Origin: a virus
Taxonomy: Duplodnaviria > Heunggongvirae > Uroviricota > Caudoviricetes
Reading direction: 5' to 3' (one strand)
DNA length: 10,003 nt
IMG/VR virus record: IMGVR_UViG_2711768001_000003
Below the pieces are notes generated by a model. The model was not told where the DNA came from, did no database searches, and was given only the letters and a program-made list of their open reading frames with translations. A program made the position numbers and the translations under genes. Below are positions 1 through 10,003 of this stretch, in pieces (the stretch's first letter is position 1; each line of letters begins with the position of its first letter).

Positions 1-69
1 ATATCTACGGCAGCAAGCCAGTAATGGGTTAAGTGATAACAGGTGTCTGGAAATATAGGGGCAAATCCA
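1..69 (+). mobile_element. Right terminus of an IS2-like insertion sequence (IS3 family); partial, the element continues upstream of the window
   Basis: Bases 1-69 (ATATCTACGGCAGCAAGCCAGTAATGGGTTAAGTGATAACAGGTGTCTGGAAATATAGGGGCAAATCCA) match my recollection of the IS2 right end, which finishes ...TTAAGTGATAACAGATGTCTGGAAATATAGGGGCAAATCCA. There are a few substitutions. Similarity stops at 69. Confidence 0.75.
2..58 (+). CDS. C-terminal 18 codons of the IS2-like transposase OrfB (5' part outside the window)
   Basis: The frame starting at 2 reads YLRQQASNGLSDNRCLEI, then TAG at 56-58. The recalled IS2 OrfB C-terminus is ...EYLRQRACNGLSDNRCLEI*. Confidence 0.65.
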   Translation, partial: YLRQQASNGLSDNRCLEI

Positions 70-3799: not shown

Positions 3800-3876
3800 G
3801 GCCCTTTAGCTCAGTTGGTCAGAGCGAGCGACTCATAATCGCCAGGTCGCTGGTTCAAGTCCAGCAAGGGCCACCA
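3800..3876 (+). tRNA. tRNA with CAT anticodon, most like tRNA-Ile2 (lysidine-modified, reads AUA; ileX/ileZ-like)
   Basis: It folds as a cloverleaf: acceptor GGCCCTT/AAGGGCC, anticodon loop CTCATAA, T-arm GCTGG-TTCAAGT-CCAGC, encoded CCA. The anticodon and T arms resemble recalled E. coli ileX far more than elongator tRNA-Met. Confidence 0.85.
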
Positions 3877-3877
3877 A

Positions 3878-3954
3878 CCACCACTAGCTCATCCGGATAG
3901 AGCATCAACCTTCTAAGTTGACGGTGCGAGGTTCGAGTCCTCGGTGGTGGGCCA
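3878..3954 (+). tRNA. tRNA-Arg (anticodon TCT, reads AGA/AGG)
   Basis: Cloverleaf: acceptor CCACCAC/GTGGTGG, D-arm GCTC-ATCCGGATA-GAGC, anticodon arm TCAAC-CTTCTAA-GTTGA, T-arm CGAGG-TTCGAGT-CCTCG, discriminator G, encoded CCA. It has an unusual C1:G72 pair and diverges from host argU. It starts 1 nt after the previous tRNA. Confidence 0.85.
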
Positions 3955-3956
3955 GC

Positions 3957-4032
<76 letters not shown>

Positions 4033-4035
4033 TAT

Positions 4036-4110
<75 letters not shown>

Positions 4111-4243: not shown

Positions 4244-4769
4244 NNNNNNNNNNNNNNNNNNNNNNNNNNNNNNNNNNNNNNNNNNNNNNNNNNNNNNNNN
4301 NNNNNNNNNNNNNNNNNNNNNNNNNNNNNNNNNNNNNNNNNNNNNNNNNNNNNNNNNNNNNNNNNNNNNNNNNNNNNNNNNNNNNNNNNNNNNNNNNNNN
4401 NNNNNNNNNNNNNNNNNNNNNNNNNNNNNNNNNNNNNNNNNNNNNNNNNNNNNNNNNNNNNNNNNNNNNNNNNNNNNNNNNNNNNNNNNNNNNNNNNNNN
4501 NNNNNNNNNNNNNNNNNNNNNNNNNNNNNNNNNNNNNNNNNNNNNNNNNNNNNNNNNNNNNNNNNNNNNNNNNNNNNNNNNNNNNNNNNNNNNNNNNNNN
4601 NNNNNNNNNNNNNNNNNNNNNNNNNNNNNNNNNNNNNNNNNNNNNNNNNNNNNNNNNNNNNNNNNNNNNNNNNNNNNNNNNNNNNNNNNNNNNNNNNNNN
4701 NNNNNNNNNNNNNNNNNNNNNNNNNNNNNNNNNNNNNNNNNNNNNNNNNNNNNNNNNNNNNNNNNNNNN
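4244..4769. other. Run of 526 N (assembly gap or masked sequence)
   Basis: Counted directly from the sequence: the first n is at 4244 and the last at 4769. Confidence 1.
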
Positions 4770-4871
4770 ATTGGTGTGCTGGGAAGTCTGCTTCTGGGGC
4801 TTCTGACTTATCTGACAAATCTGTATTTCAAAATAAGAGAAGACAAGCGTAAGGCTGCGAGAGGTGAATAA
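4770..4871 (+). CDS. S: Phage-21-type class II holin (pinholin S21-like), 3' 33 codons only; the 5' part lies in the N run
   Basis: The visible [33 protein letters not shown] matches the recalled C-terminus of S21/EssD (...[33 protein letters not shown]). The stop TAA overlaps the endolysin ATG as TAATG. A 71-aa holin would start near 4656. Confidence 0.85.
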
Positions 4872-5368
4872 TGTCGCCATCATTACGCAAGGCTGTTGCA
4901 GCTGCTATTGGTGGTGGGGCTGTTGCTATAGCATCTGTGTTAATCACTGGCCCAGGTGGTAACGATGGTCTGGAAGGTGTCAGCTACATACCATACAAAG
5001 ATATCATTGGTGTATGGACTGTATGTCACGGACACACCGGAAAAGACATCATGCTCGGTAAAACGTATACCGAAGCAGAATGCAAAGCCCTCCTGAATAA
5101 AGACCTTGCCACTGTCGCCAGACAAATTAACCCGTACATCAAAGTCGATATACCGGAAACAACGCGCGGCGCTCTTTACTCGTTCGTTTACAACGTGGGC
5201 GCTGGCAATTTCAGAACATCGACGCTTCTTCGCAAAATAAACCAGGGCTATATCAAAGGCGCATGTGACCAGCTATGTCGCTGGACATATGCTGGCGGTA
5301 AGCAATGGAAAGGGCTGATGACCCGTCGTGAGATTGAGCGTGAAGTCTGTTTGTGGGGGCAGCAATGA
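4871..5368 (+). CDS. R: SAR endolysin (phage 21 R21 / RrrD-like lysozyme, T4-lysozyme fold)
   Basis: The 165-aa product has an N-terminal Gly/Ala-rich signal-arrest-release segment ([20 protein letters not shown]). The catalytic region [24 protein letters not shown] is nearly collinear with recalled R21. Confidence 0.92.
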
Positions 5369-5829
5369 GCAGAGTCACCGCGATTATCTCCGCTCTGGTT
5401 ATCTGCATCATCGTCTGCCTGTCATGGGCTGTTAATCATTACCGTGATAACGCCATTACCTACAAAGAGCAGCGCGACAAAAACGCAAGAGAACTGAAGC
5501 TGGCGAACGCAACCATTACTGACATGCAGCAGAGACAGCGTGATGTTAATGCACTCGATGCTAAATACACGAAGGAGTTAGCTGATGCGAAAGCTGAAAA
5601 TGAAACTCTGCGCGCTGATGTTGCCGCTGGTCGTCGTCGGTTGCACATCAAAGCAGTCTGTCAGTCAGTGCGTGAAGCCACCACCGCCTCCGGCGTGGAT
5701 AATGCAACCAGCCCCCGACTGGCAGACACCGCTGAACGGGATTATTTCACCCTCAGAGAGCGGCTGATGACGATGCAGATGCAACTGGAAGGGGCACAGG
5801 AGTATATCCGCACTCAGTGCATTAAGTAG
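5365..5829 (+). CDS. Rz: i-spanin Rz
   Basis: [21 protein letters not shown] is an N-terminal TM segment, followed by a coiled-coil periplasmic domain similar to lambda Rz. ATG 5365 overlaps the endolysin stop as ATGA. Confidence 0.9.
5585..5767 (+). CDS. Rz1: o-spanin Rz1 (lipoprotein), fully embedded in Rz in the +1 frame
   Basis: The 60-aa product [60 protein letters not shown] has a lipobox (VVGC) and a proline-rich segment. It is almost identical to recalled lambda Rz1. Confidence 0.9.
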
Positions 5830-5871
5830 CCTTTTTATCGTGGTAAACATTTCGCAGGGTATGAGGTATTT

Positions 5872-6222
5872 ATGCCATCACTAATCCCACGTGCCTGCCG
5901 TAAGCGTGGATGTGCAGGTACAACCACAGACAGTTCGGGTTACTGCGATAAACATCGCGGTGAAGGCTGGGTGCAGCACCAGCGCGGACTGAGCCGCCAC
6001 CAGCGTGGCTATGGCTCAAAATGGACGGTGATTCGTGCCCGTATTCTGAAGCGCGATAAAGGTCTGTGTCAGTTGTGTCTGCGTGTCGGTGTGGTGAGCG
6101 AGGCGAAAACCGTCGACCACATCATCCCGAAAGCGCATGGCGGAACAGACGCAGACAGCAACCTGCAGAGTCTGTGCTGGCCCTGCCATAAAGCGAAAAC
6201 AGCGCGCGAACGAATCCGGTGA
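5872..6222 (+). CDS. HNH endonuclease (packaging-associated, HK97 gp74-like position)
   Basis: It has the HNH motif DHIIPKAHGG...N...LCWPCHKAKT plus N-terminal Cys pairs. GAGG lies 5 nt upstream of the ATG. The gene sits immediately upstream of the terminase genes. Confidence 0.88.
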   Translation: MPSLIPRACRKRGCAGTTTDSSGYCDKHRGEGWVQHQRGLSRHQRGYGSKWTVIRARILKRDKGLCQLCLRVGVVSEAKTVDHIIPKAHGGTDADSNLQSLCWPCHKAKTARERIR

Positions 6223-6244
6223 TAATTATTCTCACTTGTAGGGA

Positions 6245-6304
6245 GGGGCGGGGCAAATCCCTGTGACCTGACGTCTTCCGGACTGCCCGCCCCATCGTTT
6301 TTTT
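6245..6304 (+). other. GC-only interrupted inverted repeat followed by T7; candidate cos-region element or terminator
   Basis: GGGGCGGGGCA (6245-6255) pairs with TGCCCGCCCC (6284-6293) as 10 bp with one bulge. The spacer is 28 nt, followed by ATCG and then TTTTTTT (6298-6304). It lies in the 121-nt HNH-terS intergenic region. Confidence 0.35.
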
Positions 6305-6343
6305 ATACCCGCGAAAAATGAAATTTAACCAGGAGTGCCGCAT

Positions 6344-6838
6344 ATGGCTGGAACGGCGGGGCGTTCCGGGCGTCGCCCCAAGCCAACGGCGCGCAAGGCG
6401 CTGGCCGGAAACCCCGGCAAGCGAGCCCTGAACAAAGATGAACCTGTTTTTACGCCCATCAAAGGTGTTGAGCCACCAGAGTGGTTCGCTGAAGAAGATC
6501 TCCCTCTCGCCACGATCATGTGGCAACTGACAACCAAAGAACTCTGCGGTCAGGGCCTGCTGTGCGTGACTGACCTGGCGGTACTTGAGCGGTGGTGCGT
6601 GGCCTATGAGTTCTGGCGACGTGCCGTGAAAAATATTGCCATACAGGGCAACACCATCACCGGTGCAATGGGCGGCAGGGTCAAAAATCCGGAGCTGACC
6701 GCCAAAAAAGAACAGGAGTCCGAGATGAGCAGCACGGGGGCAATGCTCGGACTCGACCCCAGCAGCCGCCAGCGTCTGATTGGCCTGGCGGGGCAGAAGA
6801 AAGCCACTAACCCGTTTCTGAAAATTATCGAATCATGA
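6344..6838 (+). CDS. Terminase small subunit, P27 family
   Basis: [34 protein letters not shown] is the typical P27-family N-terminus. AGGAG at 6331-6335 lies 8 nt upstream of ATG 6344. The ORF-track GTG at 6335 overlaps that SD and is less likely. Confidence 0.88.
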
Positions 6839-8568
6839 GCCGGAAATCTTACCCCAACGTAAATGCTGCAAATCAGTATGCCCGGGATGTCGTGCGCGGA
6901 AAGATTGTTGCCTGCCAGTTTGTGATTCAGGCCTGCCAGCGCCATCTTGATGACCTGATGGCGGAAAAAAGTAAGTCGTTTCGTTACCGCTTCGACAAGG
7001 ACCTGGCTGAACGGGCCGCGAAATTTATTCAGCTGTTGCCGCACACCAAGGGGGAGTGGGCATTCAAACGGATGCCCATCACGCTGGAGCCGTGGCAGCT
7101 ATTTGTGATCTGCTGTGCGTTTGGCTGGGTCAATAAAGGCACCCGGTTGCGCCGCTTCCGGGAGGTGTACACCGAAATCCCCCGTAAGAACGGCAAATCA
7201 GCAATCTCTGCCGGTGTTGCCCTGTATTGTTTTGCCTGTGATAACGAGTTTGGCGCGGAAGTGTATTCCGGTGCCACGACAGAGAAACAGGCGTGGGAAG
7301 TCTTTCGCCCGGCGCGACTGATGTGTAAACGCACACCCATGCTGACGGAAGCGTTCGGGATTGAGGTTAACGCCTCAAACATGAACCGTCCGGAGGATGG
7401 CGCGCGGTTTGAACCGCTGATCGGCAACCCAGGTGATGGTTCATCACCCCACTGTGCCGTGGTTGATGAATATCACGAGCATGCCACCGATGCGCTTTAT
7501 ACCACAATGCTTACCGGGATGGGGGCGCGACGTCAGCCACTGATGTGGGCCATCACCACCGCCGGGTACAACATTGAGGGGCCGTGCTACGACAAGCGGC
7601 GGGAAGTCATCGAGATGCTCAACGGCTCGGTGCCTAACGATGAACTGTTCGGGATCATCTATACCGTTGATGAAGGTGACGACTGGACCGGCCCGCAGGT
7701 GCTGGAAAAAGCCAATCCAAATATTGGCGTGTCGGTTTATCGCGAATTTTTGTTAAGTCAGCAGCAGCGTGCGAAAAATAACGCCCGTCTGGCAAACGTC
7801 TTTAAAACAAAACACCTCAATATCTGGGTGTCGGCGCGTTCGGCGTATTTCAACTTGGTGAGCTGGCAGAGCTGCGAGGATAAATCACTGACCCTTGAGC
7901 AGTTCGAGGGGCAGCCGTGCATTCTGGCCTTTGACCTGGCGCGTAAGCTGGATATGAACAGCATGGCGCGACTTTATACCCGCGAGATTGACGGTAAAAC
8001 GCATTACTACAGTGTGGCCCCGCGTTTCTGGGTACCGTATGACACGGTGTACAGCGTCGAGAAAAATGAAGATCGACGGACAGCCGAACGCTTTCAGAAA
8101 TGGGTGGAAATGGGCGTTCTGACCGTTACCGATGGTGCGGAGGTGGATTATCGCTACATCCTCGAGGAGGCCAAAGCGGCGAACAAAATCAGCCCGGTCA
8201 GTGAGTCACCCATCGACCCCTTCGGGGCGACCGGGTTGTCACATGACCTTGCTGATGAAGACCTGAATCCCGTCACTATCGTCCAGAACTTCACCAATAT
8301 GTCCGATCCGATGAAAGAGCTGGAAGCAGCGATTGAATCGGGACGTTTTCATCATGACGGCAATCCCATCATGACCTGGTGTATCGGCAACGTGGTCGGC
8401 AAAAACATGCCGGGTAACGATGATGTGGTGAAACCCGTCAAAGAGCAGGCGGAAAACAAAATCGATGGTGCAGTTGCGCTGATTATGGCGGTTGGCAGAG
8501 CCATGCTGTACGAGAAAGAAGACACGCTGTCTGACCACATTGAGTCCTACGGGATCCGCTCGCTTTAA
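6835..8568 (+). CDS. Terminase large subunit (HK97/Terminase_1-type)
   Basis: The 577-aa product has the Walker A-like motif [14 protein letters not shown] and the Walker B/coupling motif AVVDEYHEH, plus a C-terminal nuclease region ([10 protein letters not shown]). The start overlaps the terS stop as ATGA. Confidence 0.9.
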
Positions 8569-8579
8569 CTGAGGTAATT

Positions 8580-8762
8580 ATGATCATGCTGATTCTCGCG
8601 CCTCTGGTGGGCGTGCTGGGTGCGCTTTTGCTGGCGTATGGTGCCTGGCTGATTTATCCCCCGGCGGGTTTTGTTGTTGCCGGGGCGCTGTGCCTGTTCT
8701 GGTCGTGGCTGGTGGCGCGATATCTCGACCGTACACGGCAGTCTGTCGGCGGAGGTAAATAG
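8580..8762 (+). CDS. Small (60 aa) two-TM membrane protein, function unknown
   Basis: [49 protein letters not shown] has two hydrophobic helices. GAGG lies upstream of the ATG. The stop TAG (8760-8762) overlaps the portal GTG start by 1 nt. Confidence 0.6.
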
Positions 8763-9918
8763 TGTTCTTTTCGGGATTATTTCAACGAAAAAGCGATGTG
8801 CCGGTGACCACGCCAGCAGAACTGCTGATGCTATCGGGCTGTCATACGACACCTATACCGGAAAGCGGATCAGTAGCCAGCGGGCCATGCGCCTGACGGC
8901 GGTCTATTCTTGCGTCAGGGTGCTGGCAGAGTCTGTTGGTATGCTGCCCTGCAGTCTCTACAAAATCAGCGGTACCCTGAAAACACGGGCGGTGGATGAA
9001 CGACTGCATAAGTTGGTTTCGGCAAAACCTAATGGCTACATGACACCGCAGGAATTCTGGGAGCTGGTTATTGTCTGCCTGTGTCTACGGGGGAATTTTT
9101 ACGCCTACAAGGTAAAGGCACTGGGAGAAGTGGTGGAGCTTCTTCCGATAGATCCGGGCTGTGTGGAACCGAAGCTGAACAGCCAGTGGCAGCCGGTTTA
9201 TCAGGTGACGTTTCCGGATGGTTCCGTGGATGTGTTGACCCAGAATGAAATCTGGCATGTGCGCACCCTGACGCTGGATGGACTTGTCGGGCTGAATCCC
9301 ATTGCGTATGCGCGTGAGGCCATTTCACTGGCAGCGGCAACCGAGGAGCACGGTGCCAGGTTGTTTAGTAATGGTGCGGTGACATCCGGTGTGTTGCGTA
9401 CGGAACAAAAGCTCACGCCGGATGCTTACGAGCGTCTGAAGAAAGATTTTGAGGAGTGTCACACGGGGCTTGGCAATGCTCACCGCCCGATGATTCTGGA
9501 AATGGGGCTGGACTGGAAGTCGATGGCGCTGAACGCCGAGGACAGTCAGTTCCTGGAAACCCGCAAGTTTCAGCTGGAAGAAATCTGTCGTCTGTTCCGG
9601 GTGCCGTTGCACATGGTGCAGAACACCGATCGCGCCACCTTCAACAATATCGAAGAGCTGGGGCTGGGATTTATCAACTATTCACTGGTGCCGTATCTGA
9701 CCCGCATCGAACAGCGGATCAACACCGGACTGGTACGAAAAAGTAAGCAGGGCGTTTATTACGCCAAATTTAACGCCGGGGCGTTACTGCGCGGGGATAT
9801 GAAGTCCCGTTTTGAAGCCTACGCCACCGGGATCAACTGGGGAATTTACTCTTCCAATGACTGCCGCGACCTGGAAGATATGAATCCGCGTCCCGGTGGT
9901 GTAATGCCGATCAGTTAA
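8762..9918 (+). pseudogene. HK97-family portal protein gene, apparently frameshifted near 8824 and 3'-truncated by IS4 at about 9901/9902
   Basis: A strong SD GGAGG (8751-8755) sits 6 nt before GTG 8762. That frame gives a portal-like N-terminus [21 protein letters not shown] but stops at 8894-8896. The portal body (ADAIGLSYDTYTGKRISSQRAMRLTAVYSCVRVLAESVG...) continues in the -1 frame from 8824. The last 5 codons and the stop (VMPIS*) are read from IS4 sequence. Confidence 0.8.
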
Positions 9919-9950
9919 GGATCAGTTGACCGATCCAGTGGCTGTGTAAG

Positions 9951-9985
9951 AATCCGGAAACGCTCACTTGTTTCCGGATTTTTTT
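9951..9985 (+). terminator. Strong terminator-like hairpin inside the IS4 left end, immediately before the transposase ATG
   Basis: A perfect 11-bp stem AATCCGGAAAC (9951-9961) / GTTTCCGGATT (9970-9980) with an 8-nt loop, followed by a T-run that extends to 9985 and abuts ATG 9986. Confidence 0.6.
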
Positions 9986-10003
9986 ATGCACATTGGACAG
10001 GCT
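9986..10003 (+). CDS. insG: IS4 transposase InsG, first 6 codons (3' part outside the window)
   Basis: ATG CAC ATT GGA CAG GCT translates as MHIGQA, which matches the recalled InsG start MHIGQALDLV.... Confidence 0.65.

Follow-up and report, generated by a model that had tools for sequence, protein, structure and literature searches.

The closest described relatives of the portal locus reported here are found in phage phiP27 (portal protein NP_543090) and in Escherichia coli A36 (WP_240745495), where the genes follow the order HNH, terS (P27 family), terL, ymfR and portal. In phiP27 and the E. coli P27-like prophages, the portal gene is read from a GTG codon that is preceded by a Shine-Dalgarno sequence and overlaps the stop codon of ymfR. 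In A36 and phiP27, genes for prohead protease, capsid and connector come after the portal. More remote from these, the portal genes of the Shigella and Salmonella phages SfIV, SfII, SfI and ST64B are intact and the phages are viable, while the gp3 portal of HK97 (PDB 8cez/8fql) is a distant relative to which the window portal has clear homology, with a match to the equivalog profile TIGR01537 (portal_HK97).

Decay of prophages and formation of pseudogenes driven by insertion sequences (IS) are known from Shigella, and IS expansion is typical of Shigella genomes. The DNA analysed here, a 10,003-nt stretch referred to as the window (IMG/VR record IMGVR_UViG_2711768001_000003), does not differ in kind, as it carries a prophage fragment lying between an IS3-family element and IS4.

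Here, we compare this fragment with its intact relatives. It shares with phiP27 and A36 the gene order from HNH to portal, with the P27-like prophages the overlap of portal start and ymfR stop, and with e14-type elements the terL-ymfR-portal arrangement. Over 380 codons its portal gene is 92.6-92.8% identical to those of phiP27 and A36 in nucleotides and 97.4-97.6% in amino acids, and its nucleotide identity to the portal genes of SfIV, SfII, SfI and ST64B is 87-89%. Unlike phiP27 and the P27-like elements, it lacks one G (codon 21/22), codons 381-413, and the prohead protease and capsid genes; unlike those of the four Shigella and Salmonella phages, its portal gene is broken. We conclude with high confidence that two independent lesions have inactivated this gene, an HK97-family portal from a P27/ST64B-type prophage, and that the deletion is inherited and belongs to a remnant common to all Shigella sonnei genomes examined.

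Results

Features of the locus

The coordinates of the main features are collected in Table 1.

Table 1 Features of the prophage remnant and its portal gene, in window coordinates
Feature	Position	Strand	Basis or remark
IS3-family element end, left boundary of remnant	1..68	+	1047 nt ending at window 68 in locus L003
Terminase large subunit gene, intact, 577 aa	6835..8568	+	Pfam TerL_ATPase and TerL_nuclease
ymfR-like small membrane-protein gene, 60 aa	8580..8762	+	homologues annotated 'protein YmfR' / 'membrane protein'
Residual 44-codon ORF	8762..8896	+	21 genuine portal codons and 23 out-of-frame codons; TGA 8894-8896
1-nt deletion site, one G of CTGGC missing	8824..8825	+	alignment gap confined to window
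Portal body, codons 22-380 of 413	8825..9901	+	-1 frame; matches to Pfam, TIGR01537 and 8cez_A
343-aa ORF picked by gene finders	8887..9918	+	internal ATG = codon 43; ends in IS4-encoded VMPIS
IS4 left end (TAATGCCGATCAG...), truncating portal	9902..10003	+	100% identity to annotated IS4 stretch; transposase downstream in related loci

Identity and start of the portal gene

The Shine-Dalgarno sequence of the portal gene, GGAGG (8751-8755, plus strand), is followed after TAAATA (6 nt) by a GTG codon (8762-8764) that shares one base with the TAG stop of the upstream ymfR-like ORF. The initial annotation had described a GGAGG-N6-GTG signal opening a frame of 44 codons, with the body of the portal in the -1 frame, and both parts of that description hold. 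The signal and its short ORF are present, and the body frame, which is -1 relative to the GTG frame and open from 8671 to 9918, matches the whole Pfam Phage_portal profile (PF04860; 358.8 bits against a cutoff of 39.1, E 3.3e-107, positions 2-321 of 321). Further matches are to TIGR01537 portal_HK97 (263.6 bits, cutoff 112.05, profile positions 3-343 of 343), which covers residues 39-379 of the repaired portal protein, and to the HK97 portal 8cez_A (E 4.6e-51) over residues 27-380. Directly upstream lie terL and ymfR, as in intact relatives; the downstream side consists of IS4 and chromosomal genes. The window gene is a pseudogene of an HK97-family portal (TIGR01537/PF04860).

Were the true start of the portal the internal ATG at 8887 (codon 43), the deletion would fall in a leader and the protein would be undamaged. 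The record of phage SfI does annotate its portal from the equivalent ATG, gene finders pick the 343-aa ORF at the window locus, and the Pfam domain begins after this codon. However, nothing resembling a Shine-Dalgarno sequence stands ahead of ATG 8887, whereas GGAGG and GTG, with the overlap of the ymfR stop, are unchanged in all seven aligned sequences (the window and six homologues). The start of the residual ORF is also the annotated portal start of E. coli A36, E. coli C311, phiP27 and SfIV, and the ST64B record begins 3 nt upstream of the GTG. Furthermore, 13 of the 16 sites that vary within codons 1-42 among the seven sequences are at position 3 of the GTG frame, and the homology to 8cez_A (from residue 27) and to TIGR01537 (from residue 39) begins upstream of M43 in both cases. 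As a distant relative, HK97 gp3 tells no more than that the stretch ahead of M43 is part of the protein. Taken together, the position-3 bias, the two matches and the invariant start signal identify the upstream stretch as portal, so that the deletion breaks real coding sequence; an internal start is accordingly very unlikely.

A single missing base

The window was aligned to six homologues (E. coli A36, E. coli C311 and phages phiP27, SfIV, ST64B and SfI). At 8822-8825 the window has CTGC, against CTGGC in all six intact genes. This comparison with intact portal genes, proposed in the initial annotation, puts the indel at 8824/8825, the missing base being the bracketed G of CTG(G)C, in portal codon 21/22. 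Among 1394 matching E. coli records, the top ones align over 442 nt to a 441-nt query from the window, beneath which they are annotated 'terminase large subunit | ymfR | phage portal protein'; for a query with one G added, 222 of 222 positions align to E. coli with no gap. The repaired translation, ...TTPAELADAIGLSYD..., is the same at that point in SfIV, ST64B, SfI and E. coli C311, in agreement with the homologue sequence given when insertion of one G was first suggested. The N-terminal 30-residue peptide of SfIV, SfII, SfI and ST64B equals the repaired window sequence except for A13V.

A two-frame layout, or a start downstream of the break, in the homologues had been named as a sign against the deletion. 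The homologues are instead single ORFs from the equivalent GTG, of 413 codons each in A36, C311, phiP27 and SfIV. The window holds no such uninterrupted ORF of ~413 codons, being frameshifted at codon 21/22 and truncated after codon 380.

With the portal body in the -1 frame and the two frames overlapping from 8762 to 8896, a programmed -1 ribosomal frameshift or transcriptional slippage could in principle join them into a functional portal. No slippery heptamer of the form X XXY YYZ was found in any frame between 8762 and 8896, however, and the search of the same interval for homopolymers as a basis for recoding found none at the break, the only runs (TTTT at 8768 and AAAAA at 8788) being upstream of it. 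The two-frame layout occurs in none of the six aligned homologues, each of which keeps the extra G and reads in one frame, and the portal gene is in addition truncated by IS4 and stands at a locus without capsid partners. Recoding therefore has next to no probability as an explanation, and the frame break is best read as a lesion.

Substitutions specific to the window are clustered at 8794-8830. A local rearrangement was considered as their origin and rejected, as nearly all of them are synonymous in the GTG frame, which marks them as ordinary allelic divergence older than the deletion. In a scan of one genome per species, a set that may not include S. sonnei, neither the deletion-bearing allele nor the repaired allele with the window SNPs (CTGGCTGATGCT) had a match, and the exact ancestral (undeleted) allele was likewise not found there. 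The window allele is present in none of the complete E. coli genomes of the collection, the best identity being 95.9%.

The deletion is shared by distinct assemblies

According to the initial annotation, either a decaying prophage carries a genuine inactivating frameshift or a base was miscalled. In the latter case the real gene would be a single ORF, misread in the source assembly at its GG dinucleotide. A GG doublet is indeed present at the deletion site, and loss of one base is the commonest sequencing artefact. Against this, a 50-nt deletion-bearing probe matched exactly at all 20 places examined, which come from 18 distinct assemblies, and the repaired probe was absent from all 20. The identical deletion is thus present in 18 of the 18 assemblies fetched and the intact form in none; these come from different projects, one of them a hybrid assembly, and a GG is no homopolymer run prone to systematic error. 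Because no repaired form occurs among the 18, a one-off base-calling error is excluded as the source, and an error of base calling or assembly is on the whole vanishingly improbable. Replication across assemblies makes the deletion an inherited feature of the lineage, in support of the true frameshift.

Naming of the assemblies as S. sonnei rests on papers for 4 of the 18, all closed chromosomes: CFSAN030807 (GCA_002442535.1; PMC11594029), 2015C-3566 (CP022457.1; PMC6456863), FC1653 (CP037997; a hybrid assembly according to the title of the paper, PMC6836418) and Ss046 (CP000038, named from a paper).

In the assembly collection, 1695 blocks record exactly the 343-aa product, down to the five residues at its end that IS4 encodes. 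Gene finders make such an internal-start call only where the upstream frame is broken, so these records point to the same break.

IS4 removes the end of the gene

Portal homology ends at 9901 and IS4 sequence begins at 9902. Window positions 9897-10003 match, at 100% identity, DNA that carries the annotation 'Transposase InsG for insertion sequence element IS4', transposase ORFs with Nterm_IS4 and DDE_Tnp_1 domains (442 aa when intact) lie just downstream in related loci, and the matching inverted end, ...CTGGCATTA, is found in loci L008 and L003. Both the terminal sequence and the transposase identify the element as IS4. It removes portal codons 381-413, the last 33, and contributes five residues (VMPIS) before a stop at 9916-9918. 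The frameshift described in the initial annotation stands; this second and larger lesion had been missed there.

Beyond the right end of IS4 we found no target-site duplication (no repeat of ...CCCGGTGGTG) and no continuation of the portal, the sequence there being CAGCCCTTGAGC... in L008 and L011 and GCTC... in L003. Neither protease, capsid nor tail genes follow IS4 at the locus, from which the connector and the remainder of the head and tail module are also absent. In most strains the genes beyond IS4 are bamE-recN-nadK-grpE, with an IS3-family element nested within IS4; in the others they are raiA-pheA-tyrA-aroF, and IS4 is intact. The lack of both duplication and continuation, with chromosomal genes on the far side, implies a later IS4-associated deletion or inversion, for which IS4 would be the breakpoint.

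This difference on the far side of IS4 is seen among S. sonnei assemblies when L003 and L004 are compared with L008 and L011 (11016-13780). Such strain-dependent flanks point to an IS4-associated rearrangement between strains.

Contents and variation of the remnant

At the left boundary, the 1047 nt that end at window 68 in L003 match multi-copy elements annotated 'IS3 family transposase' at 100%, with gene calls of 121 aa and 301 aa (HTH_Tnp_1/rve). The terminal sequence of this element, ...TAGGGGCAAATCCA, fits that of IS2, and we take the element to be IS2. Between the two IS elements lie a dnaB-like helicase gene, rusA, Q, an ORF6N-domain gene, four tRNA genes and lysis genes, followed by HNH, terS (P27 family), terL, ymfR and the broken portal. 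The exact TerL is recorded in 4305 blocks, and the 10 places examined keep the local context up to IS4.

The four tandem tRNA genes (3800-4110; Met-CAT, Arg-TCT, Thr-TGT and Gly-TCC) are placed between the Q antiterminator and ORF6N genes and the lysis cassette. Window positions 4244-4769 are 526 masked bases (N), which give rise to the spurious ORFs listed across this run in several frames. In the ten S. sonnei loci compared first, ~661 nt lie between the corresponding flanks and contain a 98-aa ORF call together with the beginning of the holin gene. From 4770 to 10003, the window differs from most of these ten loci by two substitutions only, at 5249 and 5276, both within the gene for lysozyme, where the window has T and L003 has G and C.

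In L006 and L012, an extra IS3-family insertion with ORFs of 272 aa and ~100 aa (locus 160-1385, window ~403) splits the dnaB-like helicase gene, and several assemblies have split terL, terS or dnaB calls. The split calls and the further insertion may be extra lesions or assembly errors. In CP044191.1 (L008/L021), the sequence from terL to portal is identical to the window and the lysis/HNH/terS stretch (window-equivalent 4770-6834) has 71 mismatches, as if this part had been exchanged with another prophage.

Discussion

Divergence of the repaired portal gene from those of A36 and phiP27 amounts to dS ~0.32 and dN ~0.013, a dN/dS ratio of 0.039-0.042. A ratio of ~0.04 indicates strong purifying selection for nearly all of this divergence and a gene that was functional until recently. 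We infer that both lesions are recent, late events and that the remnant is without function.

In the best account, the G at 8824/8825 was lost after long purifying selection, so that ribosomes starting from the conserved Shine-Dalgarno-GTG signal would terminate after 44 codons. The other lesion, the joining of IS4 at 9902, took away the last 33 codons, and the downstream head genes are missing from the locus. What is left is an IS-bounded remnant, from the dnaB-like gene to the truncated portal, that is common to every S. sonnei genome examined and would be unable to form particles. In these terms the locus offers nothing unusual: it is a pseudogene of familiar type, in a P27/ST64B-type prophage remnant eroded by IS elements, and occurs in many public S. 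sonnei assemblies.

Neither lesion falls within the conserved portal domain, although both are close to it, so that a truncated core could still be made from ATG 8887, which is 7 nt upstream of the TGA ending the 44-codon ORF. One could thus imagine that this 343-aa core, with the whole Pfam domain kept, is still translated by termination-reinitiation, and that it has been retained with intact HNH, TerS and TerL as a decoy against the assembly or packaging of incoming P27/Sf-type phages. Such a role is speculative and very improbable. If S. sonnei is a young clone, this would explain the apparent conservation, and the intactness of the neighbouring genes, equally well. Preference is given to the reading as a pseudogene without function.

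The importance of the locus beyond annotation is small. Its lesion and IS4 junction are in every S. sonnei assembly examined and could therefore serve as a mark of the S. sonnei prophage remnant, and the case illustrates how public assemblies, with no new sequencing, can decide the nature of a frame break noticed in one read-through. The correct label is that of a frameshifted, IS4-truncated portal pseudogene and not that of a 343-aa or 414-aa 'portal protein'.

Several records at or near this locus carry other labels. In the Ss046 record (CP000038.1; positions 7840-9084 of the locus), a TTG further upstream (window 8674) serves as the start of a 414-aa 'portal' call that runs through the wrong-frame stretch, and in the SfI record the intact portal is annotated from the internal ATG (positions 629-1744 of the locus) and not from the conserved GTG. 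A phage record of 1764 bp, OR844959.1 ('Enterococcus phage Efm 3-10'), is 96.7% identical to window 8560-8891, which suggests that enterobacterial prophage sequence has come to stand under the name of an Enterococcus phage through contamination or mislabelling.
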